A DNA stretch of 64,000 bases from Bacteroidota bacterium. GTDB lineage: Bacteria > Bacteroidota > Bacteroidia > UKL13-3. The notes under the pieces are model-generated. The model was not told the origin of the DNA and did not search any database. It saw only the letters and a list, made by a program, of their open reading frames with translations. The stretch is from NCBI GenBank assembly GCA_046309355.1, contig JBKCPL010000062.1, forward strand, positions 778 through 64,777, in the 5' to 3' direction. Positions 3,200-35,700 of the stretch are shown piece by piece. How positions within the stretch are numbered: position 1 is the stretch's first letter; each line of letters opens with the position of its first letter. Made by a program: the position numbers and the translations under genes.

Positions 3200-3358
3200 C
3201 ATAAAAGTCGTTTACGGGCATGGTAGCTTTATCAAACAGGAGTACACACTGCTGTATAAGTTACAGGTACGTTAGACCGCGACAGTTATAAAATAAAAAA
3301 ATCATGGAGTATTGAGCCCCATGATGTGTACTGAAATGTATGCTGAATTAGTTAGGTA

Positions 3359-4459: not shown

Positions 4460-4665
4460 ATATTTATTATAATGTGTGAAACAAAATTCGAACTTCATGG
4501 CAAATGTACAAAACGAATTTGCGATGCAGGCACAAACAGGAATAAAAGATTCGTACAATTCTGTCTGAATTCATACCTATGTGAACCTGAAATTGGTAAA
4601 ATACAGTTCGATTAATCAAACATTTGCATATTTTGCAAAAGAAAGTTGACGTAATAACGCACACT

Positions 4666-5673: not shown

Positions 5674-5675
5674 GT

Positions 5676-8736: not shown

Positions 8737-10038
8737 TTAGTTTATACTTACTCTGCTAACTGCTTCGCCCTGGCGTGTTGAAACACGTACAAAATAGACG
8801 CCTTTGTTCAGCGATGAAACATCCAAGCGAATGGTTCCGCTCAATGTAGATTGCTGGTACACGGTGCGGCCAGTAAGATCTGTGATGTATGCGGTAGCCT
8901 CATTTTCTTCTGTTGCCACATATAATTCTGTATGCGCAGGGTTAGGATAAACCATTAGCTTAATTTTTCCGGCTGACAATTTTTCAACGCCCACTGTAGT
9001 AGGTTTAGGTTTTGCCATCAGTGTTTTGTTAAATATAGTAATTTGCGGATTAGGTCCTGTGAATTTAGTCATCACCAGTTTGTATGCACTATCTGTCATC
9101 TCAGCAGTTTTTACAAAGAAACTGAGTGAATCAACCAGCTCCCACGGTGTTGTGCTAGGTGGTCCCTGCGGAGAAACTTTCCAGTCCCAGCCAATTATAT
9201 TAATGAGTGTCGTGTATTTGCCTTCGGCATCGTTAAATGCGGCACTATCGGTATCAACAGATGAAACACGGGCAGTGCGAATGGTAGGATGCTGTAAAAT
9301 TCCGGTTACGGTATAAAATGTATCGATACCAAATACATTAACGCGGGTGAAGTAGCGGCTCCACAACAAATGCCAGGGAGTTGAGGGCTCGCGGTCAACA
9401 ACTGTTTTGTTAAGCAAGTTGTAATACGCAAATAATTTACCGGCATAATTTCCTTTGGTTATCGTAATGGCTGCGCTATCGGTACCATCAATATTGGCTG
9501 AGGCGGCATACCACGTAGTATCAAAACTTAGCTGCATCACTTTAAATTTACGCCATACAGCATTCTGTCCTTGCTGAATGCGAATCAGAAAGGTTTTTTG
9601 TCCATCAATGTGTCGGGTAGTCATATTGTAGGTACCCCATCCAAAATTGAATTGCTGCACAAAGTAACCGTCATTAAAAGCGCCTATGTCCCATGATGTA
9701 TCGCTATCGCGTAACCTGCGCCAGCTTTGCCAGCCGCTCGTATCAAACGTATTCCAGTTTTGTGTGGTGGGTGGAACAAAGACCTGAACACCTCGGGCTT
9801 CGTTGATGCGCACGCAGGCTGCTCGTGCTACGTTCAAAGGCGGTTGTGCTGACCTTACGGCAAATGCCAGGTGCCAATTGTTATTGCGAACTGTATCTTT
9901 TGCACCGTTAGTTACATTGTAATAAACATCCAGCGGGTAGATGGGGATTCCGGTTCCCATCGATACCGAGTCTTCCATCGTTTGCGCAAAGGACTGCAAG
10001 GCAAAAAGCGTAAATAATACGTGTAGGATTTTTTTCAT
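8737..10038 (-). CDS. T9SS type-A CTD-containing secreted protein (candidate ligand-capture/hemophore-like protein)
   Basis: 433 aa with signal peptide MKKILHVLFTLFALQSFAQ. The C-terminal 80 aa match the T9SS sorting domain (YPNPAHTELYV...KGVYFVRVSTRQGEAVSRVSIN). It is the first gene of the operon with the TBDR; its stop lies 66 bp before the annotated TBDR ATG, and the TBDR reading frame stays open across that gap and the stop. Confidence 0.7.
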   Translation of the reverse strand: MKKILHVLFTLFALQSFAQTMEDSVSMGTGIPIYPLDVYYNVTNGAKDTVRNNNWHLAFAVRSAQPPLNVARAACVRINEARGVQVFVPPTTQNWNTFDTSGWQSWRRLRDSDTSWDIGAFNDGYFVQQFNFGWGTYNMTTRHIDGQKTFLIRIQQGQNAVWRKFKVMQLSFDTTWYAASANIDGTDSAAITITKGNYAGKLFAYYNLLNKTVVDREPSTPWHLLWSRYFTRVNVFGIDTFYTVTGILQHPTIRTARVSSVDTDSAAFNDAEGKYTTLINIIGWDWKVSPQGPPSTTPWELVDSLSFFVKTAEMTDSAYKLVMTKFTGPNPQITIFNKTLMAKPKPTTVGVEKLSAGKIKLMVYPNPAHTELYVATEENEATAYITDLTGRTVYQQSTLSGTIRLDVSSLNKGVYFVRVSTRQGEAVSRVSIN

Positions 10039-15528: not shown

Positions 15529-18500
15529 ATGAAAACACAAGTACTTACATTTAAAAATCTGCTACTACTCATCGGTGCATTGCTGCTGAATATAGCAACA
15601 CAACGTATACAGGCACAAACTGTGTACTTTGCAGAAAACTTCGACTCTGCCTTCACAGGCACGCCTGCAGCCCCTCCGGGCTGGACACAAACGCGCATAC
15701 AGGCTGTTACCAGCGCAGCAGCGGAATTTGACTGGCTACAAAATGTTTGGCTGGGAACAACTTGGTCAAATTTAGGTACAGGAACAACACCGGCTACCGG
15801 TGCGGTAAACGGAACTGGTGTATTGTGGATAGACGATTATAATTTAGGTGGTACATCTATAGCACAAACTGAAAGACGCTTAGAGTCACCTTCATTTGAC
15901 CTGAGCACATCCACTTCACCTTACATGCGGTTTTGGTATTTCAACAGCGAAGGTAGCGGATTAGCACTCAACCTTCGTGTGGTTATATCTACTAATGGAG
16001 GTACTACTTGGCAAACACTATCAAACGTGCTTAATGGCTATGACAGTGTGACTAGCAGCTGGAATAGAATCAGTATACCTATTCCTGCCAAGTACAGAAC
16101 TACAAATGTAAAAATTGGATTTGCTATCGTAAATAGATGGGGATCTGCTAATCCATTTATTGACGCTGTAAGCGTAGAAGAATTTACCCCTACAATTATC
16201 ACCTCAGCCGCTTCCGGCAATTGGAATAGTGCAGCTACCTGGGGAGGAATAGTTCCGACTTCCAGTCATCACGTGGTTATTCAAAGTACTCACACGGTTA
16301 CTGTAGGCGCGGCTACGGGTATCGTTGCACGGTGTCAGGACTTAACCATCAACACAGGTGGAACACTTAATTACAGCACAACCGCTGCAAACAGCCTTCA
16401 TGTATACGGTAATGTTACTGTTAACGGTACGCTTAGCGCATTAAATGGTACTAGTGGAAGAATTATGGTAGTTGGTGGGAATTTTACCATTGCTACTGGT
16501 GGTGTAGCTACCTTTAATACCGGAGCTGGAACACAAGGCACAACAGCAGTATCTACAGCATTAACCAGTACCTCATCTACATTGGTATTAACAAACTCTG
16601 CACCGGCTTCATTTACCAATTCGGGTACTTTATCTGCCAGTACTAATCGCATTAATAATATAATACATTTAGGCAGTGACACATTTACCTATAACAACAC
16701 TGTGGTAGTACCCTTTACGTTAGCGTTAAGAAATGGCCCTGTAAATCCAAATGGATTTTTAACGATTGGAAATGCCGCATCTGCTACTACATTCAACACT
16801 GTACAACGAGTTAATGGCTTTTTTACAAGTGCACCTAACTTTAGCAATACGAATATTACCTCTCGTATAACAGCTTACCATCTTTCAAACACAGTAAGTG
16901 TTCAGCCTGAGCAGTTAACAGCCGGATTTGAAATTGAGGCTATCGCTGGTGTAAGAACGGTAACCGGCACATTGGTAATGAATACCCACGATAACGTACA
17001 GGTAAATTACCCATTAACCATAGGAACAGCAACTACAGGTGGTTTTACCTTAACCCGTGGTATACTAATCACAACGGATACTATTCGCTTAACTTCCTTT
17101 TTAACACCACCGACAGGCGTTGCACCCTCTACAGCAACACCATCAACTACACATGGCTCATACGTAGTAGGGGCGTTACGTATAGATATGCCTGCATCTA
17201 ACACCACCCGCACATTTGCTATGGGTGCAGGTACACTGTTTAATCAACTTACTCCAAATGGAAACATTCTCAAAAGCAGGTCTATCGCCCCAGGTGCATC
17301 TTGGACTGCAGGTACTTCAATAACCATGCGCTTGTTAACTGGTGCTACAGGTACTGTAAGCACCCCTGTGGTTTCACTACTGGGAAGTAATGTTACACAG
17401 ATTTCATTAAACAACGGTCCGGATGTACCCGGAACTACAACCATTACATTTAACGGAATTAACAATTACACATTGGGTGGAGGTGTTAACAGCGATAACT
17501 TATTTGGCAATGAAGACCAATTGCATCTGGTGCAGTCTCCTAATATTACAGGACCGTGGGCTACAGCATCGGCCGTTTCAGGAACAGCAATTCCTTTTGC
17601 AAACAATACCAACTACAGCAGAACGACCACAGCAACTGTTTCGCCTATTGCTACCAATGGAGGCTTTTTTACACTGGGCACGCAGGTAGGTCCTGTTGCT
17701 TATAACACGACTATATTAAACCGCAATACTGCACCACTTACTCCCGGAACAGCACAACCAAATGTACAGATGATGCGCGTGAATATTACAACAACAGGAG
17801 TAATACCCGGCATTAACGCAACGTCTTTCAGTATGAGTACAAACGGTTCCACAAATCTGAGTAACATTGTCAATGCAAAAGTCTATTTTACGGGAAGCGA
17901 TTCAAACTTTTCAGCCATCAACCAGTTTGGTACTACCTTCACATCTCCTAGTGGCCGATTCATTGTTTCGGGCACACGTCAGTTGTTAGCAGGCAATAAC
18001 TATTTCTGGATTACATATGATGTCCCAGCCACTGCTTCACTTGGCGACAGCCTTACCGTAAGTTGCGATACTATCGTTGTTGCAGGTACTCCATATAGCA
18101 TTACACAGCCTTCTCCGGGCTTCAGGGTATTCTCGCTGCCTATGACGTATGTGTCGTCAACAACAACGCATCCATTTACTAACCCGATTGAGAAGAATAC
18201 AAACTTCCACGTAATTATGCGTGCTGAAGTAGTAACTTCAGCAACAGGTTCTCCCATACCAGTTACTTCATTTGACTTAAACACAGGATCTACATCTAAT
18301 CCATTAACCAATATAGATAGTGTGATAGTATGGTATACCGGTACAAACGGATCATATACAACTCCGGTATTTTTTGGTGGAGCAGGGTCTGTTTCTGGTG
18401 CATTCACAGTATCTGGCTTTCAGAATTTGGCTAATAACTCCAATTATTTCTGGATTACTTACCGCCTCAAACCGGGAGCAAACGTAGGCGACTCGGTAGA

Positions 18501-21500
18501 CGTAGACTTGAACGGTATTATAGTGAGCAGCAGCACACAGGTTCCTTCGGTGACCTCACCTGCCGGCAGCAGAAGAATTAGAGGTGTGTATTGTGCTTCT
18601 GCAGCTACAAACACAGGCGATGAGGAAATATTCAATGTAAGTATTTCTACACTTAATAATTCATCTACATGTACCACGCTGGCACCTGGCCCCGGCTCAA
18701 TCACACAGCGCTATGCAAATTATACTACGCTGCCAGCTACAAATGTAGTAGCAGGACTATCCTATCCGCTTAGCGTGACCATTAACACGTGCGGAGGTTT
18801 TTACGGTGAAAAGTTAAATGCGTACATTGACTGGAATCAGGATGGTGACTTTGCCGATACACTGGAGACTGTAATGGATATAGCTTACGCTACCGGAACA
18901 GCGAATGCTGTTCGCACGCAAAATGTAACTGTTCCATGCTTTGCTATGGCGGGTACAACCATGATGCGCGTTGTTTATGTGGAGGACGTTAGCGCGCCTT
19001 CTTGTGGAACCTATACTTGGGGTGAAACGGAGGATTACACATTAAATGTATTGAATGTCCCTCCAGCATACACAGCATCTACTACCATTCAACAAACAGG
19101 TAGTACTTCAGCGGCTGCAACAAATGTGGCTATTTTACGTGTTCCGGTAAAAGTACTGTCCACTTCATGTCAACCCGGACAAATTACACAGCTCAATTTC
19201 AATACTGCAGGCACCACATCAACAGCTGATATCATAGCCGCGAAATTGTACAAAACAGGAAACAGTGGAGTTTTCAGTGTTTCCAATCTCATAGGTACAG
19301 TAACCGCACCTAGCGGAGCATTTGGTTTTAGTATAACGGATACTACAGTAAATGACACGAACAATTACTGGCTAGCTTACGATGTGTCGGGTACTGCACC
19401 TAACGCAAATGTGCTAGATGCACGATTTGACAGTGCGTTGGTTTTTGGCAACTGGTACACACCAGCCATTTCAGCACCCGCTGGCAATATTGTTATTGCT
19501 ACTCCGATGACATACTTATCATCCACATCATCACATCCAACTCTTTCTAAAATAGAACGTGGTACCACAAATAATCAAATGCTACGGATTCGGGTTATCA
19601 TGTCATCAACAGGTGCACCAGTATCATTAACACAGTTGAACCTGAGTGTTAATGGTTCATCCAATCCAACAACAAATATTGACAGTATCATGGTATGGTA
19701 TACCGGTAGTAATCCTAATTTTACTACGCCTACATTTTATGGAGGTACCGGAGCTCAGTCTGGTGCGTACAGTATTGCGGGTTTGCAAAGTTTGTTAAAT
19801 GACACCAATTACTTCTGGGTAACTTATCGTGTACCCGTAAGTGCGGTGGTAGGGGATTCGGTAGATGCCGAAATACAGACTCTGAATGTAGCAGGTACAC
19901 TGCAAACCCCATCTGTAACTGCACCGGCAGGTGCCCGCTTAATTCGCTCACCGTATTGTGCTGCCGGTGCAACAAGTACATTTGATGGCGAAATATGGAA
20001 TGTAACAGTAGGTTCGTTGAATAATACGTCTACATGTTTAACTACAGGTGGTCCCGGTTCAGTATTGGGAGGTTATTCTGATTACACTGCGGTAATAGCA
20101 CCAGTAAACTTGATTGTGGGAACCCAGGTTCCATTTTCAGTACATACAAGTACGTGCAATGGTAATTATACCGGGGTGTTGGGAATATGGATTGACTTTA
20201 ATGATGACGGAGACTTTACCGATCCGGGAGAGGAAGTACATATGTCACCCACTTTCACTTATGGAGCTACGGTATTCCGTACAGGTAATTTATCAATCCC
20301 TTGTGCTGCACCAGGTATTAAACGTATGAGGGTTACGTTGATGGAAACAACTATTACCCCAATTAGTCCTTGCGGTAGTTATGGCTATGGTGAAACGGAA
20401 GATTACACGGTAAATATTGTTTCGCTTCCACCAAGTTATACTTCGTCAACTACACTACAGCAAACCGGATCAACGTCTGCAGGCGCAACCAATATTCCCA
20501 TATTGAGAGTGCCGCTGAACGTTTTTGCAACAAGTTGCCAACCGGGAGTTATAACTCAGCTCAACTTTAATACTGCAGGTACTACATCTGCAGCGGACAT
20601 TGTAGCTGCCAAACTCTATAAAACAGGAAGTGCTAATACGTTCAGCGCATCCAATCTGGTTGGTACTGTTACATCACCAAGCGGTGCATTCAGTTTTTCA
20701 ATAACCGATACTGCTGTAAACGATTCCAATAACTACTGGCTCACGTATGATGTATCGGGTACAGCACCAAATGGAAATGTACTGGATGCACGTTTTGATA
20801 GTGCTCAGGTATTTGGCAGCTGGTATTTACCCATTGTTTCTAATCCAACAGGTAATGTTCTGGTATCGACTCCGATGGCATTTGTTTCAGCCACATCTAT
20901 TCATCCTACATTATCTAAAATAGAACGTGGAACAGCTAATAATCAGATGTTAAGAGTTCGCGTGATTATGTCATCAACGGGTGCTCCGGTACTGGCTACT
21001 CAACTGAATTTAAGCGTAGCGGGTTCTGCAAATCCGACTACCAATATTGACAGTATCATCGTTTGGTATACCGGATCAAATCCGAGTTTTGTATCCCCTG
21101 TATTCTTTGGTTCTACAGGAACTCAATCGGGTGCGTATACAATAACCGGTACTCGAAACTTACTGAACGACACAAACTATTTCTGGGTAACATACAGAGT
21201 TCCATCGGGAGCCACTGTAGGTGACTCCGTAGATGCAGAAATTGCAGACATTACAGTAGCGGGTATTCCTCAGGTTCCTGGTGTAACTGCACCAGCAGGT
21301 GCACGAACCATTCGTGGTGCGTATTGTCCATCAGTAGCGGGTACTACGGCTGATGGTGAAATCTGGAATGTAACTGTCGGTTCATTAAATAATTCCTCGA
21401 CTTGTACAACCACAGGTGGAACTGGTTCAACACTAAATTCATATTCGAATTACACAACTACAATAGCGGCTCCCCAATTCGCTGCGGGTGCTTATATACC

Positions 21501-23175
21501 TTTCTCTGTGAATACGAGTACATGTGGTGGCGATTACCCTGGAGTACTTGGTATTTGGATTGACTTTAACGATGATGGCGACTTTACCGATGCCGGTGAA
21601 GAGGTACATATGACACCAGTGTTTACTTATGGAACTGCTGTATTCCGTACTGGAGATATTGTTATCCCTTTAACAGCTAGTCCTGGATTGAAAAGAATGC
21701 GTGTAACACTGATTGAAACCGGTACAAGTCCGATAACTCCATGTCAGACTTATTTCTATGGTGAAACGGAAGACTATACGGTTGAAATTATGCCGGCACC
21801 TGCTCCAACTACTTATGTATGGAATCAGACCACTCCGGGATCATTTAGTACAGCAACGAACTGGACTCCGGGTCGTGTTGCACCAAATTTGAATGACCGT
21901 CTCATTTTCAGTGGTGGTGGTTCTGCAACAGTAAATGATTTAGTTAACCATAGTGTAAAGAATATTACGATTTCGAACAACACAACCGTGAATATGAATG
22001 CATCGGTAACTGCAACATTTAATGCCTGGGATACATTGGCACTTACTTCAGGTAAAGCCGTTACTGGTTTGAATGTAAATTTATCAATGGGCAGTAGAAA
22101 CGGTGTGGGTACACTAACCGGGTCAGGAACAGTTGAAGGGACCTTTACCCGCTGGGCTGACTTAGGATTGAGTACCTATTCCTTCCCATTGTCTCACACT
22201 AACCTTAGCAGAAATGTGGATATAACATTTAATGGCGCGCCTGCAACCACAGGAACAATTACAGCTACATTTGTGCCCGGTTTGCCCGGTACTACCGGTT
22301 TACCATTCAACGATGGATTGATTAACGTGAACAGAGTGGCCGAAAATGGATACTGGAATTTAACCAGTGGTAATGGATTAACATTCGGAACTGCTACTAA
22401 TTATAACCTGGCACTAACAGCCAACGGATTTAATGGTGTAGTAACCTTGGCTACATTAACGGTAGCCAGAAGGGTTAACAATACCAGCCCATGGGATACA
22501 GCAGGTACTTATGCAGCAGCTACCGGTACCAATGCCACACCTGTGGCTAATCGCTCTAACCTGCGCGTACTTGGCGATTTCACATTGGGTGGAGATTCCG
22601 CTACCAATCCGCTTCCAGTAAATTTGGTAAATCTTCAGGCCAGTTCAATAGGCGAAGATGTATTGGTAACTTGGACAACTGCCAGCGAATTAAACAATAA
22701 GGGCTTCATTGTTGAAAAATCAATGAATGGCGTTGACTTCGAAAGTATCGGATTTGTAAACGGAAAGGGTACAACAAATATTCAGGTAAACTATCAGTTG
22801 TTGGATGAAAAAGCCTTCGCAGTTGTTAATACAGTATACTACAGACTGCGTCAGGTTGATATGGATGGAACAGAACATCTGAGTAACATTGTACGTGCAA
22901 CCAAAACCGAACGCAGTATTGCTTCGACTACAGTAGCGCCTAATCCTTTCAATGGAATCACTCATCTGAATATTGTATCTGCTGAACAAGGAGAATACAC
23001 CATAACAATTTCCGACATTCAAGGTAAAACCATAGGTACTCGAGTGGTAAATGCCATAAAAGGCCTGAACACTATCAGCCTGACTGAAATGCAGCAGGCA
23101 GGTGCAGGAGTTTACTTCATACGAGTTTTAGGTACTGAAAGTACTACCATTAAAGTGGTAAAATCTGCTGAATAA
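15529..23175 (+). CDS. giant T9SS-secreted surface protein with repeated beta-sandwich modules and 3 GEVED-type domains
   Basis: 2548 aa with a signal peptide. It has three YC...WIDFNDDGDFTD...GETEDYT domains at about 18586-19050, 19954-20420 and 21313-21790, and repeated ...NYFWxTY... modules. The C-terminal T9SS CTD occupies 22933-23172 (GVYFIRVLGTESTTIKVVKSAE). Confidence 0.85.
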   Translation: MKTQVLTFKNLLLLIGALLLNIATQRIQAQTVYFAENFDSAFTGTPAAPPGWTQTRIQAVTSAAAEFDWLQNVWLGTTWSNLGTGTTPATGAVNGTGVLWIDDYNLGGTSIAQTERRLESPSFDLSTSTSPYMRFWYFNSEGSGLALNLRVVISTNGGTTWQTLSNVLNGYDSVTSSWNRISIPIPAKYRTTNVKIGFAIVNRWGSANPFIDAVSVEEFTPTIITSAASGNWNSAATWGGIVPTSSHHVVIQSTHTVTVGAATGIVARCQDLTINTGGTLNYSTTAANSLHVYGNVTVNGTLSALNGTSGRIMVVGGNFTIATGGVATFNTGAGTQGTTAVSTALTSTSSTLVLTNSAPASFTNSGTLSASTNRINNIIHLGSDTFTYNNTVVVPFTLALRNGPVNPNGFLTIGNAASATTFNTVQRVNGFFTSAPNFSNTNITSRITAYHLSNTVSVQPEQLTAGFEIEAIAGVRTVTGTLVMNTHDNVQVNYPLTIGTATTGGFTLTRGILITTDTIRLTSFLTPPTGVAPSTATPSTTHGSYVVGALRIDMPASNTTRTFAMGAGTLFNQLTPNGNILKSRSIAPGASWTAGTSITMRLLTGATGTVSTPVVSLLGSNVTQISLNNGPDVPGTTTITFNGINNYTLGGGVNSDNLFGNEDQLHLVQSPNITGPWATASAVSGTAIPFANNTNYSRTTTATVSPIATNGGFFTLGTQVGPVAYNTTILNRNTAPLTPGTAQPNVQMMRVNITTTGVIPGINATSFSMSTNGSTNLSNIVNAKVYFTGSDSNFSAINQFGTTFTSPSGRFIVSGTRQLLAGNNYFWITYDVPATASLGDSLTVSCDTIVVAGTPYSITQPSPGFRVFSLPMTYVSSTTTHPFTNPIEKNTNFHVIMRAEVVTSATGSPIPVTSFDLNTGSTSNPLTNIDSVIVWYTGTNGSYTTPVFFGGAGSVSGAFTVSGFQNLANNSNYFWITYRLKPGANVGDSVDVDLNGIIVSSSTQVPSVTSPAGSRRIRGVYCASAATNTGDEEIFNVSISTLNNSSTCTTLAPGPGSITQRYANYTTLPATNVVAGLSYPLSVTINTCGGFYGEKLNAYIDWNQDGDFADTLETVMDIAYATGTANAVRTQNVTVPCFAMAGTTMMRVVYVEDVSAPSCGTYTWGETEDYTLNVLNVPPAYTASTTIQQTGSTSAAATNVAILRVPVKVLSTSCQPGQITQLNFNTAGTTSTADIIAAKLYKTGNSGVFSVSNLIGTVTAPSGAFGFSITDTTVNDTNNYWLAYDVSGTAPNANVLDARFDSALVFGNWYTPAISAPAGNIVIATPMTYLSSTSSHPTLSKIERGTTNNQMLRIRVIMSSTGAPVSLTQLNLSVNGSSNPTTNIDSIMVWYTGSNPNFTTPTFYGGTGAQSGAYSIAGLQSLLNDTNYFWVTYRVPVSAVVGDSVDAEIQTLNVAGTLQTPSVTAPAGARLIRSPYCAAGATSTFDGEIWNVTVGSLNNTSTCLTTGGPGSVLGGYSDYTAVIAPVNLIVGTQVPFSVHTSTCNGNYTGVLGIWIDFNDDGDFTDPGEEVHMSPTFTYGATVFRTGNLSIPCAAPGIKRMRVTLMETTITPISPCGSYGYGETEDYTVNIVSLPPSYTSSTTLQQTGSTSAGATNIPILRVPLNVFATSCQPGVITQLNFNTAGTTSAADIVAAKLYKTGSANTFSASNLVGTVTSPSGAFSFSITDTAVNDSNNYWLTYDVSGTAPNGNVLDARFDSAQVFGSWYLPIVSNPTGNVLVSTPMAFVSATSIHPTLSKIERGTANNQMLRVRVIMSSTGAPVLATQLNLSVAGSANPTTNIDSIIVWYTGSNPSFVSPVFFGSTGTQSGAYTITGTRNLLNDTNYFWVTYRVPSGATVGDSVDAEIADITVAGIPQVPGVTAPAGARTIRGAYCPSVAGTTADGEIWNVTVGSLNNSSTCTTTGGTGSTLNSYSNYTTTIAAPQFAAGAYIPFSVNTSTCGGDYPGVLGIWIDFNDDGDFTDAGEEVHMTPVFTYGTAVFRTGDIVIPLTASPGLKRMRVTLIETGTSPITPCQTYFYGETEDYTVEIMPAPAPTTYVWNQTTPGSFSTATNWTPGRVAPNLNDRLIFSGGGSATVNDLVNHSVKNITISNNTTVNMNASVTATFNAWDTLALTSGKAVTGLNVNLSMGSRNGVGTLTGSGTVEGTFTRWADLGLSTYSFPLSHTNLSRNVDITFNGAPATTGTITATFVPGLPGTTGLPFNDGLINVNRVAENGYWNLTSGNGLTFGTATNYNLALTANGFNGVVTLATLTVARRVNNTSPWDTAGTYAAATGTNATPVANRSNLRVLGDFTLGGDSATNPLPVNLVNLQASSIGEDVLVTWTTASELNNKGFIVEKSMNGVDFESIGFVNGKGTTNIQVNYQLLDEKAFAVVNTVYYRLRQVDMDGTEHLSNIVRATKTERSIASTTVAPNPFNGITHLNIVSAEQGEYTITISDIQGKTIGTRVVNAIKGLNTISLTEMQQAGAGVYFIRVLGTESTTIKVVKSAE

Positions 23176-23314: not shown

Positions 23315-26300
23315 ATGCACCCTTTTACATTTGTCAAATACATGAACACCGGAATAAAAATTCTTTTTACAGTTATCTTATTATCGTTCGGATTAAAACC
23401 TGTAGAAGCACAGGTATACCTAGCCGAAAGTTTTGAGAATGCATTCACTGGCAATCCTGCTGCGCCTGCAGGTTGGAGTCAATCACGAATACGCCCTGTT
23501 GTTACATCGGCCGAAAGAGACTGGGTACGTAATACTTTTAGTGTAGGGGCGTGGGCAATTACTGGTGGAACCTTGCCACCAAGTCCCGGAGCATTTCATG
23601 GAAACTCAGTATTGTTTTTACAAGATATCGGATTCGGTGGTGCAGCTTCACCGCTAACAGAACGTAGAATTTCATCGCCCGCTATGAATCTTAGTACAGC
23701 CACATCTCCATACGTGCGTTTCTACCTGTTCTACCCTCAGGATCCTTGTTTGAATATAAACCTTCGCGTGGTTATTTCACCTGATAACGGAACTACATGG
23801 CATACGTTATCCAATATTATGAGTGGCTTAAACACAACCACTTCTCCCAACCAATGGGCAAAAATCAATGTTCCTATACCTGCAAGATATCGTACAACAC
23901 AAACGCGTGTAGGTTTTGCCACAGTTAACCGAAACGGAGCAAATAATATTTTTATTGACTCTGTATCCGTTTTAGAATACACCCCTACAACCATTACTAG
24001 TGCTGCCAGCGGCAACTGGAATTTGCCTGCAAACTGGGTTGGTGGAGTTGTGCCTACATCTGATCATAATGTAGTTATTAGCAGCGGTCATACCATTACT
24101 GTAACTGTTGGACTGGCTAGTGGGGGTGTGCGTTGTCAGAATTTAACAATTAACTCCGGGGGTACGTTAACATACGGTGCAAACGGCAGTCAGCTGCTTC
24201 AGGTATTTGGCGATGTTACAGTATCAGGAACGTTATCTGCATTAAATGCTACCAACGGACGTATTTTGTATGTAGGTAAAAACTTTACTATCAATACAGG
24301 AGGTGTTGCAACTTTTAATACAGGTAATTCAACATTGGGAACATCTGCACCATTAGCTAACTTGCCGTTGAACACCTCGGGTATCGTATTTTGTAATAGT
24401 GATTCGGCAACATTCACCAACGCAGGAACATTAGCAGGTAGTCGGGTAAACAACATCTGGCATTTGGGGTCGAATGATGCGGTATTCCGCTATAATGATT
24501 CGGTTAGTGTACCCTTAACATTTACTTTGATAAACGGAAGAGTTGATGCAAATAGCAGACTAACGCTAGGTAACGCTGCTGTTGCTAATACAGTAAATTA
24601 TGTGTGGCGCACTAATGGTAGTTTTACATCAGCACCGGTATTTAATAATACAAACATAAACATACGCTGGATGCTATATCTGTCGGTATTTCAAAGTACT
24701 GTAACCCCTACCACACTCATAGCTGGTGAAGAACATCGAAATAATTCAGGGCGGGTAATTGAAGGTTATCTGACTATGAATACCCATAACAATGTAGAGT
24801 TGCAATACCCACTTTCATTTAGTGCTTTACATACTCCGTTTCTTCAACTGCAGCGTGGGATCTTACTAACCAGTCAGGCAAATCCGCTTATATTTTCTAG
24901 CAATTATGCAGGCACCACGGCATTGGCACCTAGTACAATTAATCCTAACCCCACCAATCATGGATCGTATGTAGTGGGCAGTATTCAAATAAACAGACCA
25001 ACAACAGGAAATCTTCAGGTATCGTTGCCATTTGGTATTGGATCAGCATTTAACGGGATTGCACCTAATGGTAATCAAGCACGTACCATAACTATTAATC
25101 CCGGTACTAACTGGAATGGAGAATCATTCTTATGCACATATAGTTCGGGCAATGCTACAAGCCGCAACGTAACAGGCAACCTAACAACTACAATGAGTAA
25201 CAAAATGTTGCGGATACAACCCTTGAATGGTGACTTACCCACAAACACTGTAGTATCCCTGACTGCCATCAATTATCCATTTGGCAACAGCGATAGTTTA
25301 GTGGGCCAACAAGGTCAGATGTTTGTGGTGCAGGGTAACTCCCCAAATGGTCCTTGGGTGCAGCGTTCATCTACGAATGGATTGGTATCGCCCTTTGTAA
25401 GCAATACGTTATACACATTGAATACGGCAGCAACCAGTCCCGGACCCATATCTCCCCTTTCATCCAATGGTCAGTACTTTCGATTTGCCACCTCAGCACC
25501 TGTAATGCAATATACAAGCAGTTCGGCTCAGCGGGTTACAGGAAATGTATCTGTCGGTACGGCTAATATGCCTATGCTTCGAATACGTGTTGACATTTCC
25601 GGAATTGTACCCATCAATATCACAGGACTAAATCTTTCAACTGCCGGAACATCAAATACAGCTGCTATTGCAAATGTTAAAGTGTTTTACACGGGTACAG
25701 ATTCTACATTCAACACACTTTTACCATTTGGAAATCCCGTTGCAACTCCTTCGGGAGCATTTACTGTAAGTGGTAATAGTCAGTTACGCACCGGTGCCAA
25801 CTTTTTTTGGATTGCATACGATGTGGCAACTGGTGCTGCACAGGGCGATAGTCTTATTGTGCAGTGCAGCAGCGTTATAGTGGCCGATACCGCCCGAACA
25901 GTAACTATGCCGAATGCTTCTTTTCGAATAGTAGGTACATCCATGGCGTTTATTTCAGCTAATGCATTTCAAACTGTAACTTCAAAGGTATTTACCGGAT
26001 CATTCAACAATGAGATTCTGCGGTTAGAGGTACTTATGTCGGATACAGGTGCGCCTGTACCCATCACACAAATGCAATTCAGAACATTAGGCTCAGCCAA
26101 TCCTCTTACAAATATTACCACCGCAACAGTGTATTACACCGGTGGCAGTGCCGTGTTCTCTCCCAATATACCTTTAGGTAATTTTAGTTCCCCTAACGAT
26201 ACGTTTATTGTAAGCGGTCAGTTAAATTTGCGTAACGGGATGAATTATTTCTGGCTTGCGTACGATATAAGTAGCACTGCCAGCATTACTGACTCAGTTG

Positions 26301-29300
26301 ACGGAGTCTTCATATCCCTAGGCGTTAATGGAAATAACATCGCACCCATATCAACAACACCAGCCGGAAACCGTAAAATCAAAGCCCAATATTGTCTGCC
26401 TACTTATACGCTCGGATGTGCCAGTGATTTCATTTCTCGTGTCCGATTAGAAACTATTGATAATATTACAACCTGTAATTCGCAAGGTTTTTATACCTAC
26501 TTTTCAAGTATTACACCTCCTACATTACTAGCCGGAAGAACATACACACTCAAATTAAATTTTAACAGTGAACCCAATCAGTTTGCACGAGCATGGGCTG
26601 ACTGGAATGAAGATGGAGACTTTGTGGATTCAGGAGAAGACTTGGGTATTCAGACTCCTGCGAATGCAGGAACGGGTGGTATGGCTTCTATTACCTTCAC
26701 TGTACCTTGTACCGCAACAAATTCTGTTACACGTTTGCGAATTCGTGGGGGCGATGATGCTCAACCGCAGGCTAATCAATCCTGCGGAGCATCATCCAAT
26801 GCCTATGGCGAAGGTGAAGACTATGACATAAATGTAGTTAGCGGAAACAGAGAGCATCTTGGTAATACTGCACTTCAACAAACAGGTGGAGCACCGGCCT
26901 CTACATTAAATACAGCCATCCTGCGTGTACCTGTAAAAGTAAAAGTAACAAACTGCAACCCGGGTGTAATCAATGAATTTCGATTCCGCACCACTGGAAC
27001 AACCAATACAGCAGATATCCTAAATGCTAAACTTTACAAAACAGGTTCGTCACCTGTATTCTCTGTTGCAAATCTTTTAGGCACTGTTGCTAGCCCATCA
27101 GGTGTATTTAGTTTTGTAGTTAACGACTCAGCTGTAAACGACACCAATAACTATTGGTTAACGTATGACATTGCCTCGACAGCACCTAACGGCAATTTAC
27201 TGGACGCAGTACTCGACAGTGTACGTGTTTTTAACAGCTGGTTCATACCGGCAAATGGTAATCCATCCGGATCAAGGACTGTGGCTACGCCTATGTCATT
27301 TATAGGTGCAAGTGCTGTGCATCCTACACCTGATAGAGTGGAGAGGGGAAGCGCAAACAATCCGATGCTTCGCATGATGGTAAGAACAACAAGCTTTGGT
27401 GCACCGATTAATGCCACTCAATTTACCCTAAGCACAGCAGGCTCACAAAATACATTTTTCAATCTCGATAGTATAATAGTTTGGTATACCGGAAGCAACG
27501 CTGAATTCGAAAATCCGGTATTATTCGGAGGCGTAGGAATGCAAACAGGTACATTTACAGTGAGTGGTATTCAAAGCTTGAATAATGATACAAATTACTT
27601 TTGGGTTACCTATAACATTCCTCCTTTTGCCAGTATAGGCGATACAATGGATGCGGAGTTTATCAATGTTACGATAGGTGGTACTTTGCAAACAACTTCT
27701 TCCGGAAACCCTGCAGGTTTTCGAATCATTCGTGCAGCCTATTGTGCTGCAGAAGCAGCCGGAGGAACAGATGCTGAAATTGTAGGCACATACATAGGGC
27801 CATTATCCAACGCATCGAACTGCTCTACGACCGGTGGGCCAGGATCTATTCAAAATTCGTACAGCAATTTCACTCAAATACTACCCGCTACTACTTTCAT
27901 CATGGGCAAAACATATCCTTTTTCCATAAATACTTCTACATGTAACGGCAGTTTTGATGCGGTGTTGGGAATTTGGGTTGACCTGAATCAGGACGGTGAT
28001 TTTAACGATGCCGGAGAAGAACTTCATATGTCACCAGTGTTTGCATACGGGGCTAATGTTATTCGTACCGGTACCATTACCATACCGTGCACTGCATTAA
28101 GCGGACGAACCCGGCTGCGAGTAATCATGAATGAAACATCCAGTGGGCCTATATCTGCGTGCGGTAGTTATACCTTCGGTGAAACGGAGGACTATTTGAT
28201 TAATTTGGTTAATGTGCCTACGAGTTACATAAGTAGTACCGTATTTCAGCAAAGCGGTTCGGCACCGTTTGGTGGTGTAGATGTGCCCGTACTTCGGGTA
28301 CCTGTAGTAGCAAACGCCAATTCATGTCAGCCGGGCACAATCACCCGATTATTCTTTACTACCGCTGGAACTACAACTACTTCTGATATTCTGAGTGCAA
28401 AACTTTATAAAACAGGAAGCAGCGCTACATTTAATACCAACACATTGCTAGGAACAGTAACATCACCCTCCGGATTATTCAGCTTTTTGTTAACTGACAC
28501 TGTACTTGACGACACCAATAATTACTGGCTTGCATACGATGTGTCTCTAACAGCAACCGGAAGCAATCTACTGGATGCAACATGCGACAGCATACTTGCA
28601 TTCGGCTCGCGTTTCATTCCGGCTGTTACCAATCCTGCTGGTGCGCTTTCTGTAACTGCGCCTATGACGTTTGTTGATGCTAATGCCTTACATCCAACCC
28701 TGCAGGTTATAAACAGCCCGTCAGCCAATAACCAAATGTTACGAATTATGATTCGTATGTCGGCCACTGGTGCGCCTGTTCCTGTTTCTCAATTTAACTT
28801 GAGCACCAACGGTTCTCAAAATCCGCTTGTAAATGCCGATAGCATTATTGTTTGGTACACCGGTTCTGGTTCAGCATTCACCTCTCCTGTATTTTTTGGG
28901 GGTGTTGGTCCTCGAAGCGGTAATTTCTCTATTACTGGATTACAGCCGCTGTTGAATGATACAAACTATTTTTGGATAACATACCGAGTACCACAAACTG
29001 CTATAATTGGCGATTCACTGGATGCAGAGTTAATTAATATAGTCGTTAATGGTGTAATCAGAACACCAATTAACGGAGCTCCTGCCGGAAAACGAAGAAT
29101 TAAAAACAGCTATTGTATTCCGGTTATTACTACCGGGTGCGGATTTGATATACTTGATTTGGTTACCACTACCGGTGCTACTACCAATCTAACGAATTCT
29201 TCCACCGGTTGTAACGGCAATCCAAATTCCTATCAGTTTAATACCTCGCAAACTCTCGTCATTACACAAGGTGCAACATTTACCATAAACCTGCGAGCCG

Positions 29301-30928
29301 ATGGCGATATGGAAGGTTTGGCAGCATGGATTGATTACAATGATGACGGTGACTTTGACGATCCTGATGAATTCATCGCCACCTTTGCTCCCAGTATGGG
29401 TGTAGTGAATTCATCGCCTGTTACAGTACCGCTGCAAACGATTACAGGCATAACACTGCGTATGCGTGTTCGCGCTATCTTTAACACACTCATTGGTGCT
29501 TCACAATCGTGCACGGCAGTGCAGTGGGGTGAAACGGAAGATTTTCAGGTACAAATTTTACCTGCACCTACACCTACCACGTATGTTTGGAATCAAACAA
29601 CACCGGCTAACTTCAATACAGCTTCAAACTGGACACCGGCCAGAGCAGCTACTAATTTAAACGACCGACTTGTATTTAACTCGGGTGGTGTAGTAACAGT
29701 AAACACATTGCCCACGCAGCGTGTAGCAAGTCTCGAACTGCTTAATGGAACAACGCTGCAGTTGCAATCAACGTCACAAAACACATTGACTGCAACCGAT
29801 TCACTATACTTAACTTCGGGTAAAGTTGTTACAGATGCGAACACCAATATGTGCATCGGACGCAGAAATTTTGCCGGTGTACTAACCGGATCTGGATATG
29901 TGAACGGTATTTTAGTAAGATGGATAACAGGTACAGGCACCTACACGTTCCCGATTTATGACATGGATACTAACCGTCAGGTTACTGTGATCGTAACAGC
30001 AGCACCTACCGAGCCAGGCACTTTGGCCGCTCGTTTTGTTCGCGGACAACCGTCAACCAACGGGTTGCCATTAACAGATGGCAGTATTCTGGTGAATCGT
30101 GTGGCACAAAACGGTGTATGGCGCTTAACATCCGGGAATAATCTTGGATCGTTACAATATAATCTGACCGTTCGTGCAGATTCGTTTGCCGGTGTATACA
30201 ATGTTGCCGGTTTAAGTCTGTTGCGTAGAGACAATAATACTGCGGCATGGACAGTGAGCGGAAACTATGTAGCTGCTACCGGCAGTAGGTATACGCCACT
30301 GGTTAGTCGTACCAATCTTTCTAGTCTTGGTGAATTTACCTTGGGCAGCGATACTGCAATGAATCCGCTACCGGTTGAGTGGCTTAAATTTACAGGACAC
30401 GTTTCGCACACGCATGCGGTATTGCGATGGGCTACCGCTACCGAAAAAAATAACAGCCACTTTATTGTTCAACGTTCGGCAGATGCAGTAAACTTTACCA
30501 CCATAGGATACGTGAAAGGAAAAGGAAATTCGGTATCCGTGACTGATTATGAATATACGGATGACCAGGTTTTCACGCAAACACCATCTGCATACTACCG
30601 ACTGATACAAGAAGACCTAGACGGCACACAATCGTTTAGCAGAATTATTTATTTGACGGCCACACCACAAAACGAGCTATTACAGGTTATTCCCAATCCA
30701 TTCAACAAAGCACCTGATATGGTATTTAGCAGTGCAACGAATGAAACAGTTGCCGTGTTGATTACCGACATCAGCGGACGAACACTCGCCACACAAACTG
30801 TGTATGTGCAGGAAGGAATAAACCGCATACAAGTATCATCTGTAAGCACACTGCCCGCAGGCATTTATTTCATATCACTGAGTGGAGTTGAAAGCAGAAC
30901 CTGCAGGGTTATCAAACTTCACGATTAA
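23315..30928 (+). CDS. giant T9SS-secreted surface protein, tandem paralog of the upstream gene
   Basis: 2537 aa with the same architecture. The N-terminal domain aligns with gene A (VYLAESFENAFTGNPAAPAGWSQ... against VYFAENFDSAFTGTPAAPPGWTQ...). It has three GEVED-type domains at about 26391-26840, 27738-28215 and 29110-29560, and the CTD at 30686-30925. Confidence 0.85.
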   Translation: MHPFTFVKYMNTGIKILFTVILLSFGLKPVEAQVYLAESFENAFTGNPAAPAGWSQSRIRPVVTSAERDWVRNTFSVGAWAITGGTLPPSPGAFHGNSVLFLQDIGFGGAASPLTERRISSPAMNLSTATSPYVRFYLFYPQDPCLNINLRVVISPDNGTTWHTLSNIMSGLNTTTSPNQWAKINVPIPARYRTTQTRVGFATVNRNGANNIFIDSVSVLEYTPTTITSAASGNWNLPANWVGGVVPTSDHNVVISSGHTITVTVGLASGGVRCQNLTINSGGTLTYGANGSQLLQVFGDVTVSGTLSALNATNGRILYVGKNFTINTGGVATFNTGNSTLGTSAPLANLPLNTSGIVFCNSDSATFTNAGTLAGSRVNNIWHLGSNDAVFRYNDSVSVPLTFTLINGRVDANSRLTLGNAAVANTVNYVWRTNGSFTSAPVFNNTNINIRWMLYLSVFQSTVTPTTLIAGEEHRNNSGRVIEGYLTMNTHNNVELQYPLSFSALHTPFLQLQRGILLTSQANPLIFSSNYAGTTALAPSTINPNPTNHGSYVVGSIQINRPTTGNLQVSLPFGIGSAFNGIAPNGNQARTITINPGTNWNGESFLCTYSSGNATSRNVTGNLTTTMSNKMLRIQPLNGDLPTNTVVSLTAINYPFGNSDSLVGQQGQMFVVQGNSPNGPWVQRSSTNGLVSPFVSNTLYTLNTAATSPGPISPLSSNGQYFRFATSAPVMQYTSSSAQRVTGNVSVGTANMPMLRIRVDISGIVPINITGLNLSTAGTSNTAAIANVKVFYTGTDSTFNTLLPFGNPVATPSGAFTVSGNSQLRTGANFFWIAYDVATGAAQGDSLIVQCSSVIVADTARTVTMPNASFRIVGTSMAFISANAFQTVTSKVFTGSFNNEILRLEVLMSDTGAPVPITQMQFRTLGSANPLTNITTATVYYTGGSAVFSPNIPLGNFSSPNDTFIVSGQLNLRNGMNYFWLAYDISSTASITDSVDGVFISLGVNGNNIAPISTTPAGNRKIKAQYCLPTYTLGCASDFISRVRLETIDNITTCNSQGFYTYFSSITPPTLLAGRTYTLKLNFNSEPNQFARAWADWNEDGDFVDSGEDLGIQTPANAGTGGMASITFTVPCTATNSVTRLRIRGGDDAQPQANQSCGASSNAYGEGEDYDINVVSGNREHLGNTALQQTGGAPASTLNTAILRVPVKVKVTNCNPGVINEFRFRTTGTTNTADILNAKLYKTGSSPVFSVANLLGTVASPSGVFSFVVNDSAVNDTNNYWLTYDIASTAPNGNLLDAVLDSVRVFNSWFIPANGNPSGSRTVATPMSFIGASAVHPTPDRVERGSANNPMLRMMVRTTSFGAPINATQFTLSTAGSQNTFFNLDSIIVWYTGSNAEFENPVLFGGVGMQTGTFTVSGIQSLNNDTNYFWVTYNIPPFASIGDTMDAEFINVTIGGTLQTTSSGNPAGFRIIRAAYCAAEAAGGTDAEIVGTYIGPLSNASNCSTTGGPGSIQNSYSNFTQILPATTFIMGKTYPFSINTSTCNGSFDAVLGIWVDLNQDGDFNDAGEELHMSPVFAYGANVIRTGTITIPCTALSGRTRLRVIMNETSSGPISACGSYTFGETEDYLINLVNVPTSYISSTVFQQSGSAPFGGVDVPVLRVPVVANANSCQPGTITRLFFTTAGTTTTSDILSAKLYKTGSSATFNTNTLLGTVTSPSGLFSFLLTDTVLDDTNNYWLAYDVSLTATGSNLLDATCDSILAFGSRFIPAVTNPAGALSVTAPMTFVDANALHPTLQVINSPSANNQMLRIMIRMSATGAPVPVSQFNLSTNGSQNPLVNADSIIVWYTGSGSAFTSPVFFGGVGPRSGNFSITGLQPLLNDTNYFWITYRVPQTAIIGDSLDAELINIVVNGVIRTPINGAPAGKRRIKNSYCIPVITTGCGFDILDLVTTTGATTNLTNSSTGCNGNPNSYQFNTSQTLVITQGATFTINLRADGDMEGLAAWIDYNDDGDFDDPDEFIATFAPSMGVVNSSPVTVPLQTITGITLRMRVRAIFNTLIGASQSCTAVQWGETEDFQVQILPAPTPTTYVWNQTTPANFNTASNWTPARAATNLNDRLVFNSGGVVTVNTLPTQRVASLELLNGTTLQLQSTSQNTLTATDSLYLTSGKVVTDANTNMCIGRRNFAGVLTGSGYVNGILVRWITGTGTYTFPIYDMDTNRQVTVIVTAAPTEPGTLAARFVRGQPSTNGLPLTDGSILVNRVAQNGVWRLTSGNNLGSLQYNLTVRADSFAGVYNVAGLSLLRRDNNTAAWTVSGNYVAATGSRYTPLVSRTNLSSLGEFTLGSDTAMNPLPVEWLKFTGHVSHTHAVLRWATATEKNNSHFIVQRSADAVNFTTIGYVKGKGNSVSVTDYEYTDDQVFTQTPSAYYRLIQEDLDGTQSFSRIIYLTATPQNELLQVIPNPFNKAPDMVFSSATNETVAVLITDISGRTLATQTVYVQEGINRIQVSSVSTLPAGIYFISLSGVESRTCRVIKLHD

Positions 30929-32785: not shown

Positions 32786-35700
32786 ATGGAAAAAAAAGTA
32801 CTCCTCCGTCTCGTGCTGGCAATGTTGACTTTAGCAGTAAGTCAATATACAAATGCTCAGCTTACCACCAATTATCCGGCCTCTAATCATATCGTAGTCA
32901 CGGGTACGCCTTACACCGACCTGGGAACTACGGGTAGTATTATCAGCACACTAAACACAGATGATGCGTTGTCATCGGCTGTGCCCATCGGTTTCTCATT
33001 TACATTTAATGGTGCCAGTTACACCGAATTTATTTTGTCAACGAATGGATTTATAAAAATGGGTAACGTAGCACCATCATCGGCTGCCCTTTTTTATGCC
33101 GGACCGCAAAGCTCGGGTGCCGGTACAGGTGGGGCAGCGAATAGCACCAATACACTTGATACTGCTTTAATCATTCCATTTAATCACGATCTTATAGGAG
33201 CAAGTGGTGCAGAATACCGTGTAAGTACAACGGGTAGTGTGGGTTCGCGTATCTGTACTATACAATTTAAGAATCTAACCGAAAAAAATACAACTATCGC
33301 TATTCAGTACGCTATTATTAATTTCCAAATCAAGCTATACGAGGGTACAAATGTTATTGACTTTGTATGGGGGCCATTTACTGCTAGTACAAACACTTCA
33401 GCTTTTCGCAGTGCGTTGTGCGGTTTAAAAGGCAGCGGAGCAACGGCTACAAATTTATTAACCGTAACTAAAGGAAGCGTAACTGCATGGAACCTGCCTA
33501 CTTTTCAAAATGGAAATTATACCGGCAACGCATTAAATTACGGAAACAATGTCGGTTCTACAAGACCCCTTCCGGTAGCCGGTACTATATATCGTTTTAT
33601 ACCTGTTTATGCCAATGATATAGCCGTACGCCAAGTTTATACCTTAGGTAAAATGCCTAAAGCGTATACATCACCTCACTTTGTGCGTGCAGCCATTCGC
33701 AATAGCGGAACTTCAGCTAGTACAGGATTCTACATCAAACTGCAGGTAACAGGTGCAAATCCGTTTATAGACAGTTTACTGGTTACCGGTATGAATCCGA
33801 ATGTCGATACGATTGTGACCTTTGCCGGACACAGTCCTACAACAAACGGATACGATACGGTGAGGGTATTTGTTGACCCCGATGACAATTCTTTTAACAA
33901 CAGCCGTATTTCAATACGAGATGTTAACAACGTGATTTATTCATATGCCGACCCTTCTGTTCCATCGGCAGGCGGTGTAGGTTTTACCGGAGCAAGTGGT
34001 GATTTTGTGGCAAAATTCCCTTACTCGGGTGTAATCAACGCTATTAATCAGGTGGGTGTTAATTTTAACACAGGTGGAAATACATTGCGTATTGGCATTT
34101 GGAACAGAAATACCGGAACCGGATTGCCCGGCACGCTGCTGTGGCAGTCGTCTCCATTTGTAACTATAGCCGGCCTCAATACCATCCCGGTTAATCCTCC
34201 CGTGGCGATTTCCGATACCTTCTTTGTGGGCGTAATTCAAATCGGAACGGTGAATGCCGCATTCTCTTTTCAAAATGAAAACCCCATACGAAATCAAACA
34301 TTTTATTACACCTCTCCCACCGGAACAAGTTCGTGGATTGACTTTTTTGCGACAGCCAGTGCATTTAGGTTCATGATCGAGCCACGCTTGCAATCGCCAG
34401 ATGATATGGGAGTAACTGATATTCTATATCCATGCCCTGTATTGCCTGCGGGCCAGCCAGCCATCATTCCCAGTGTGCGAATATTTAACTATGGCGCACT
34501 GGCTCAAACAGCTGTAAAAATTAAATGTGCTATTTTCAATGCAACAGGTAACCGTGTGTATATCGACTCAACCACGACTGGTACAGTAAACTCAGGCAAT
34601 TATAGTATCATCAATTTTACGGATACGTTTTCTACCTTTACACCGGGTAATTATACGATTAAATCGTGGAGTGAGTTGATAGGTGATGGGTCTCTGGTAA
34701 ACGACACCGCCACATCGCTTCTCACCATTACGAATATTCCCAACATAAAATCAGCAGGTACATTTCTGAATTTTGATGGTGCCGATGACCATATTGTGGT
34801 TGCCAATAATCCGTCTATTTCACCCGCTGCAGAATTGAGTATTGAAGCCTGGATTAATCCGACTAACTTTATCACTAACCGCACCATTGTTTCTAAGGAC
34901 TCTGCTGGGTTGAACCGTTCTTACCGGTTATTTATTAACACAACAGGGAATCTGGTATTTACCGTAAACACCTCATCAGGTTTGGCAACAGCTGTTTCTT
35001 CTACCATCATTCCTACAGCCAGCTGGACACACGTTGCAGCAACCTTTGACGGTGCCAACCTGCGTTTGTATGTAAACGGAGATACAGCCGGTGCATCTAT
35101 TCAAATTGGAACTATAAACTCATCAACAACCGGGCTATATGTTGGGAAAAATGGCCCCTCGGTGAACGAGTTATGGGTAGGCGGAATCGATGAATTAAAA
35201 ATTTGGAACATAGCATTAACCGAAAGCGAAATACGCAGACGCATGCATACCCGATTACCCAATTTAGCCAGCACAAATCTTCGCTTGTATTTCCGTTTTG
35301 ACGAGGGTCTCAACAATCCCATATTATCTGATGCATCAGGCAACTGCAATAGCGGAACCACGGTAAACATGGACGTACAAAATTCTACTACCGCTCCTGC
35401 AGTATTTATTTCAACCATACCCATTGGTACACCTGCGGTTGTTGATACACTCATTGGCGGTTCGGGTACCTATGTATTAACTGGGGGTGCGCTAAACATG
35501 AATTTCTTTAACTACCTGGGGTCTGAAAATTATGTATTGCATAAATTTGATACGGTGTACAGCACGTTGCCAACTGTAAATCCCGGTGGAGTAACTGCTT
35601 CCACTCCGCTTACATGGATTCTGTACCGATATGGTCTTGCAACGTATGACAGTATTTACGCCAGTTTCTTATTGGGTCCGGGTTACATACTGGGTACCGG

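Follow-up and report, generated by a model that had tools for sequence, protein, structure and literature searches.

The DNA analysed here, referred to as the window, is a stretch of 64,000 nucleotides (nt) of contig JBKCPL010000062.1 from an uncultured freshwater Bacteroidota bacterium. It carries gene A, which encodes a giant protein, and gene B, a tandem paralogue that starts 139 nt downstream of it. An earlier examination of the letters alone, referred to below as the sequence-only reading, had drawn attention to two consecutive units inside gene A, here termed A2 and A3, and had interpreted them as a recent and unstable tandem duplication. The origin, the age and the probable role of these units are addressed in the present analysis. 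The coordinates of the features are collected in Table 1.

Table 1. Positions in the window of gene A, its units and other features, and of the paralogous gene B.
Feature	Position	Strand	Description
Gene A	15529-23175	+	Single open reading frame (ORF), 2548 aa; giant protein, predicted secreted
Putative Sec signal peptide	15529-15618	+	MKTQVLTFKNLLLLIGALLLNIATQRIQAQ; read off the translation
MAM-like / 'choice-of-anchor J'-like N-terminal domain	15865-16176	+	Borderline Pfam match
Unit A1	17698-19056	+	Older copy of the tri-domain module; unit HMM envelope aa 721-1176
Unit A2	19057-20424	+	456 aa; N1 19057-19500, N2 19501-19947, GEVED-containing domain 19948-20424
Unit A3	20425-21795	+	457 aa; N1 20425-20868, N2 20869-21315, GEVED-containing domain 21316-21795
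12-nt direct repeats	21254-21265, 21332-21343	+	CAGTAGCGGGTA; bound a 78-nt in-frame segment absent in P0057
C-terminal region, last unit to sorting domain	21796-22935	+	Kept in homologues
T9SS type A C-terminal sorting domain	22936-23172	+	Por_Secre_tail, TIGR04183
Gene B	23315-30928	+	Tandem paralogue of gene A, 2537 aa
Unit B1	25484-26842	+	Unit HMM
Unit B2	26843-28213	+	Unit HMM
Unit B3	28214-29563	+	Unit HMM

The gene A protein consists, from the N-terminus onwards, of a signal-peptide-like segment, a MAM-like domain, a long β-rich region, three tri-domain modules, a conserved C-terminal region and a sorting domain of the type IX secretion system (T9SS). The Pfam search returned three GEVED domains, four BNR_assoc_N stretches and Por_Secre_tail. 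The modules were delimited with a hidden Markov model (HMM) built from the units, which splits the gene A and gene B proteins each into three consecutive modules of ~455 amino acids (aa). Near-identical or identical copies of the gene A protein in metagenome-assembled genomes (MAGs) carry the NCBI name 'GEVED domain-containing protein', and the gene is also present in the ENA contig ERZ27247978 k141_742215.

A2 and A3 are in-register copies, found at 1368-nt spacing in the repeat search. Comparison of gene positions 3493-4883 with 4861-6254 by blastn gave one high-scoring segment pair of 1402 nt (E = 1e-136, 67.9% identity), BLASTP aligned 454 residues of the two units (E = 0) and the codon alignment required one codon gap. 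The tandem duplication of a ~1.37-kb unit proposed in the sequence-only reading thus holds. The two consecutive colinear units lie within a few bases of where it had placed them, and in the nucleotide alignment their similarity runs colinearly through the unit instead of being confined to short motifs. The motifs it had listed, (V/L)PP(A/S)YT(A/S)STT(I/L)QQTGSTSA, NIDSI(M/I)VWYTGSNP and GETEDYTV, were recovered together with its 30-residue example, and the older, more diverged copy that it had placed before them corresponds to A1, which shares 42-44% aa identity with A2 and A3. The degree of similarity had been overestimated. Protein identity between A2 and A3 is 72.7-73%, against the ~85% claimed (the example given belongs to one of the best-conserved stretches), and nucleotide identity is 67-68% (blastn; 67% in the codon alignment), so that the description as near-identical does not apply. 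The 73% aa identity is higher than that of either unit to B2 (54%) or B3 (49-50%).

The similarity is even along the unit, and high-identity tracts were absent from the windowed comparisons. Identity at third codon positions in 40-codon windows was 0.17-0.53, mostly 0.35-0.50. The longest exact run shared by A2 and A3 measures 18 nt and lies at the GETED motif (shuffled controls: mean 11, maximum 15), and the longest in-register exact runs are 17, 17 and 17 nt. Tandem Repeats Finder reported nothing over the whole window, because the copies lie under its ~70% identity limit; this null result is no evidence against the repeat. Self-comparison of the whole gene A protein by BLASTP gave the identity hit only, and the similarity of the units was seen once they were cut out and compared separately. 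A sub-repeat with 447-nt spacing was also observed within A2 and A3 (19349-19379, 19796-19826, 20717-20747 and 21164-21194; motif NDTN(N/Y)(Y/F)W(L/V)(A/T)Y). It reflects the N1 and N2 domains of each unit, themselves an older internal duplication.

The age of the duplication was assessed from substitutions. By the Nei-Gojobori method, the proportion of synonymous differences (pS) between A2 and A3 is 0.735, with a nominal synonymous divergence (dS) of ~3, a nonsynonymous divergence (dN) of 0.22 and dN/dS of at most ~0.075. Synonymous sites are at saturation. Comparison was then possible with a syntenic locus (L001), whose protein P0002 is 84% identical to the gene A protein. The two loci share the gene order HmuY-like, TonB receptor, T9SS-tail protein, YfhO, DUF8201, epimerase, A, B, FTCD and LamG/CARDB protein. 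Their flanking genes are 76-92% identical at the aa level and ~76-83% at the nt level (dS 1.1-1.5), a divergence which places L001 in a different species; housekeeping genes of the window organism and of this sister species are ~81% nt identical. The orthologous unit pairs A2/P0002_u2 and A3/P0002_u3 show 83% and 84% aa identity with dN of 0.104 and 0.106, while the four paralogous comparisons among these units give dN of 0.195-0.221, about twice the orthologous values. In a neighbour-joining (NJ) tree of 49 units with 100 bootstraps, A2 grouped with P0002_u2 in 100/100 replicates and A3 with P0002_u3 in 100/100, and A2 grouped with A3 in 0/100. Among informative nucleotide sites in the four-taxon comparison, 106 supported orthology, 32 a concerted history and 38 the third topology, the last being the level of homoplasy. 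Neither this count nor sliding windows gave a signal of gene conversion between A2 and A3 above homoplasy, or a local tract of it, since the split from L001.

The 1:1 orthology of A2 and A3 with the P0002 units indicates that the duplication is older than the species split and that the copies have been independent since. Measured in dN, the duplication would be roughly twice as old as the split from the L001 species. Judged from the substitution rates, both A2 and A3 are under purifying selection. That both have been retained independently for so long (dN/dS at most 0.08) is an argument that neither copy is dispensable; the need may be for valency and length, or for diverged specificity.

Length variation was then considered at the level of strains. 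The 90%-identity cluster of gene A contains five full-length members, all of 2548 aa, which were assembled independently in ENA, JGI, NCBI-MAG and Logan data. The other members are fragments at contig ends, except for one variant of 2522 aa (P0057). In the sister-species cluster the full-length proteins have 2546 aa, with one N-terminally truncated member of 2415 aa, and three units were counted in P0002. No length difference of ~456 aa was present among the full-length members of the strain-level or sister-species clusters. P0057 is without 26 residues of A3, IPQVPGVTAPAGARTIRGAYCPSVAG, a loss that includes an otherwise invariant Cys at the junction of N2 and the GEVED-containing domain. This 78-nt loss is not a change at the level of units; it may be a true microhomology deletion or may stem from an assembly error.

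The number of units does vary over the family as a whole. Homologues carry 3, 4, 5 or ~7 units. Among complete genes of species-representative genomes, four units were found in 13 genes, three in 8, one in 6 and two in 5, and incomplete family genes have up to 8. The most similar pair of units within a gene ranges over the family from 50 to 89% nt identity, gene A being mid-range. Younger unit pairs were observed in L027 (CP012155.1, the complete genome of Bacteroidetes bacterium UKL13-3; 85% nt identity, third-position identity 0.83) and in L031 (89% and 0.82). In the family member P0003 (locus L004, 10001-17626), gene positions 2998-3984 and 4366-5352 form a 987-nt tract of 98.5% identity, spaced by the 1368-nt period of A2 and A3 and including an exact run of 348 nt. 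This tract is genuinely a recent unit-level duplication or conversion within the family. P0003 had been considered as an orthologue of gene A (61% identity) and was rejected, as it lies in a different genomic context and is chimeric: in 100-column windows its N-terminal ~900 aa match P0002 at 77-97% identity (mostly 90-97%), and beyond them identity falls to 33-74%. Unit turnover is thus seen in the family, but it is neither taking place in gene A nor has it done so recently.

The relationship of the units to those of more distant relatives bears on how the pair arose. In the distant relatives P0007, P0008, L006, L007 and L024, the middle unit and the last unit differ in the subtype of their GEVED-containing domain. 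In both A2 and A3 this domain is 67-75% identical to the last-unit type of these relatives (P0007, L006, L024) and 31-39% to the middle-unit type, and in the NJ tree the A2/A3 clade adjoins the last units of the distant relatives. The closest species-representative genome found, L024, contains one A-like gene (44% identity to A), and this adjoins an FTCD gene 73% identical to that of the window. On the simplest reading of these relationships, the middle unit in the gene A lineage would have been replaced by a copy of the last unit with the count kept at three, although this is a weaker inference than that on age.

The domains of the module were assigned by Pfam scores and by structure prediction. 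The N2 domains score 42.4 (A2) and 41.1 bits (A3) against BNR_assoc_N (cut-off 25) and are members of PF14873. The C-terminal half of the third domain scores 71.4 and 73.1 bits against GEVED (PF20009, cut-off 24.4), which establishes membership of this family as well. A2 was modelled with AlphaFold2 on an alignment of 21 units; the model shows three all-β domains with a mean pLDDT (predicted local distance difference test) of 92.5. The A2 sequence itself had no meaningful match among PDB chains (best E-value 0.44). A Foldseek search of the PDB with the model returned sialidases of glycoside hydrolase family 33 (GH33) from Bacteroidota (4fj6, 6mrv, 4q6k, 7qxo and 4bbw; E 1e-6 to 1e-5), at a query-normalised template modelling (TM) score of ~0.32, about that expected for a one-domain match to a three-domain query; the other matches were generic multi-β-sandwich proteins. 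Model and search together show the β-sandwich fold of the sialidase N-terminal module. The columns invariant in the 21 units include two Cys, D380, E392 and E446. The consensus there is WIDxNxDGDFxDAGE; the motif GETEDY lies close to the C-terminus and occurs in each of the three gene A units. The invariant Cys and acidic residues suggest a disulphide and a metal site. PF14873 corresponds to the CAZy family CBM93; in experiments with NanH of T. forsythia, and with that protein only, the module was found to bind sialoglycans and related glycans (PMC9472817). The GEVED family takes its definition from CshA, a fibrillar adhesin, and is regarded as a stalk domain of adhesins (PMC10952558). From this domain content, the predicted fold, the putative signal peptide and the T9SS sorting domain, the gene A product is probably a multivalent glycan-binding surface protein.

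Outside the modules, the translation, read by eye, shows a hydrophobic N-terminal segment that ends in ...RIQAQ and is a putative signal peptide. The MAM-like domain scores 25.3 bits against Pfam MAM, which is borderline (cut-off 26.4), and 21.2 bits against Reelin_subrepeat-B; an N-terminal fragment of the gene A cluster is named 'choice-of-anchor J domain-containing' by NCBI. Pfam returned no significant family for the stretch from the last unit to the sorting domain, which aligns colinearly with gene B and the P-series homologues. The C-terminal domain scores 35 bits against PF18962 Por_Secre_tail (cut-off 27) and 35.5 bits against TIGR04183 (cut-off 23), so that the gene A protein carries the C-terminal sorting domain of T9SS type A cargo. 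An NCBIfam match to a Leptospira M4 peptidase model (C-terminal domain only) was far under cut-off and was rejected; it reflects the GEVED domain and not a protease.

The gene A and gene B proteins are 45.6% identical and colinear end to end over 2559 alignment columns. Gene B has the Pfam content of gene A (three GEVED, several BNR_assoc_N and the T9SS C-terminal sorting domain), and the A-B pair is kept at the syntenic L001 locus of the sister species. Three more ORFs of the window carry Por_Secre_tail: one of 433 aa (8737-10038, - strand), a CARDB/Laminin_G_3 protein of 1217 aa (32786-36439, + strand) and an IPT/TIG-repeat protein of 1841 aa (58369-63894, - strand). Their presence within 64 kb fits an organism that has a T9SS and makes the window rich in T9SS cargo. 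Upstream of the giant genes, a TonB-dependent receptor (6683-8671) adjoins an ORF of 336 aa (5676-6686), both on the - strand and with synteny kept in L001, where the counterpart of the smaller ORF has a weak HmuY score. These two genes (5676-8671) may form a haem-uptake pair.

Taken together, the results make it highly probable that A2 and A3 arose by an old tandem duplication of a tri-domain module of 456 aa, in which two CBM93-like domains are followed by one that contains GEVED, within a giant protein predicted to be exported by the T9SS, and that the copies are stable, independent and under purifying selection; the domain content would make the protein an adhesin-like glycan binder. In the gene A lineage the middle unit would derive from the last unit, copied as a whole; duplication and subsequent loss, or conversion of the entire unit, would have produced it. 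This copying would have followed the split from the distant relatives and preceded that from the sister species. From then on A2 and A3 would have evolved independently under strong purifying selection, with no homogenisation and no change in copy number, and they would no longer be a useful substrate for homologous recombination. The gene A protein would be exported through the T9SS and then displayed on the surface or released. Through its six CBM93-like domains it would bind glycans multivalently, the GEVED-containing domains serving as spacers or stabilisers, and duplication of the module would have added valency and reach.

Some observations weigh against this interpretation. The N1 domains score 16.5 (A2) and 21.4 bits (A3) against BNR_assoc_N, under the Pfam cut-off of 25. 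With dS saturated, the age can be bounded only from below and dN/dS only from above. The four-unit clade of A2/A3 type has a support of 45/100, and its bracketing by the distant relatives comes from an NJ tree whose units are deeply diverged and in part mosaic. In addition, all the sequences derive from short-read metagenome assemblies, which could collapse extra near-identical copies.

The sequence-only reading had envisaged a recent tandem duplication giving near-identical kilobase repeats, a hotspot of RecA-mediated expansion and contraction, and a protein whose size varies between strains. The units are indeed adjacent, colinear and equal in length, unit number ranges from 1 to 8 among distant family members, and the P0003 tract at L004 (987 nt, 98.5%, 348-nt exact run) demonstrates that such events occur in the family. 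A recent, recombination-prone repeat would be expected to show nt identity of ~90-95% or more, low synonymous divergence, long exact tracts, copy-number polymorphism and paralogues as closest relatives, and A2 and A3 display none of these. At 67-68% nt identity and with pS saturated at 0.735 they are not recent, and each has its own 1:1 orthologue in a different species. Homologous recombination that depends on RecA generally requires a tract of tens of bases or more. Exact runs here do not exceed 18 nt and conversion has left no signal since the species split, which leaves a hotspot unsupported. The prediction of size variation fails among strains, where no sequence differs by ~456 aa and full-length members all have 2548 aa, and survives in spirit only over deep time, in the changing unit number of the family. 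A recent origin is on these grounds very unlikely.

A history of concerted evolution was also considered, in which A2 and A3 would be as old as the split of genes A and B and would have been kept alike by ongoing gene conversion. It would account for an identity between the two (73%) that exceeds their identity to B2 (54%) or B3 (49-50%), and the constant count of three, with the last-unit GEVED type in both, fits a past whole-unit conversion; conversion-like tracts do exist in the paralogue P0003. Ongoing conversion, though, conflicts with the orthologous pairing (100/100) and with the site counts, in which concerted sites (32) do not exceed homoplasy (38) against 106 for orthology. No conversion since the split from L001 was detected, and the even similarity along the unit, lacking high-identity tracts, speaks against it too. 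We regard this alternative as improbable, if less so than a recent duplication. The window is, moreover, a megahit k141 metagenome contig, and repeats are a known problem of assembly, so that the duplication or its copy number might have been produced by mis-assembly. A k-mer assembler cannot, however, confuse units of 67% nt identity whose exact runs are at most 18 nt. The same 2548-aa protein was recovered in several independent ENA, JGI, NCBI MAG and Logan assemblies, the 2546-aa protein of the sister species lies on 20 contigs, and the reading frame is intact and under purifying selection. The chance of an artefact can be taken as negligible.

An old and stable duplication thus being preferred, gene A presents a selectively maintained three-module architecture that is common to two tandem paralogues and to the sister species. 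The case also illustrates how a conserved protein repeat can be misread as a recent, unstable duplication when nucleotide-level and comparative checks are left out; that call is corrected here. The giant T9SS protein family now described could guide studies of lectins or adhesins in these organisms, and L027, being from a complete genome, is a good place for the study of unit turnover. More speculatively, and with rather low confidence, the 456-aa unit of two CBM93-like domains and GEVED might be an evolutionary cassette, not described before, from which uncultured freshwater Bacteroidota build giant T9SS surface proteins. Duplication, replacement and conversion of whole units would alter how many of them are present (1 to 8), in which order and with which domain subtypes; the exchange of the middle unit in the gene A lineage and the 98.5%-identical tract of P0003 would be examples, and multivalent glycan recognition would be diversified as a result. 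If this is true, the recognition so diversified could be that of, for example, algal or cyanobacterial surface polysaccharides.

Giant bacterial surface proteins built from domain modules in tandem repeat are well known. The CBM93-CBM93-GEVED cassette and its turnover in MAGs of freshwater Bacteroidota appear to be uncharacterised, though not surprising. Giant cell-surface adhesins secreted by the T9SS include SprB and RemA of Flavobacterium johnsoniae. No sequence relationship of gene A to these proteins was seen, although no comparison aimed at one was made; its repeat module is different, and the window offers no gliding-motility context. Surface protein genes with tandem in-frame repeats of whole domains, as in gene A, are also found in the streptococcal alpha C / Rib family and in staphylococcal SasG/Aap. 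The repeats of these genes are nearly identical in DNA and their number varies between strains, whereas the gene A units reach 67-68% nt identity, have no exact run above 18 nt in common and are fixed in number across strains and two species.

The sialidases of GH33 provide a closer parallel for the binding domains. Gene A shares PF14873 with NanH of T. forsythia (7QXO) and BTSA of B. thetaiotaomicron (4BBW), and its predicted fold matches their CBM93 (PMC9472817). Unlike these enzymes, gene A is without the sialidase β-propeller or another catalytic domain, and it has six CBM93-like domains in tandem pairs, of which the N1 copies fall under the Pfam cut-off. In overall organisation, gene A resembles the fibrillar and repeat-stalk adhesins with GEVED, typified by the CshA family of Streptococcus gordonii (Barringer et al. 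2023, PMC10952558), which are large secreted surface proteins with domain shuffling and tandem repetition. As in that family (PMC10952558), GEVED (PF20009, 71-73 bits in gene A) occurs alongside domains that bind ligands, and the C-terminus holds a signal for anchoring or sorting. CshA, on the other hand, is a Gram-positive LPXTG protein in which NR2 is the adhesive domain and a single GEVED precedes a distinct repeat region. In gene A, by contrast, GEVED lies within a thrice-repeated 456-aa module together with two CBM93-like domains, in a Bacteroidota protein that bears the signal for export by the T9SS.

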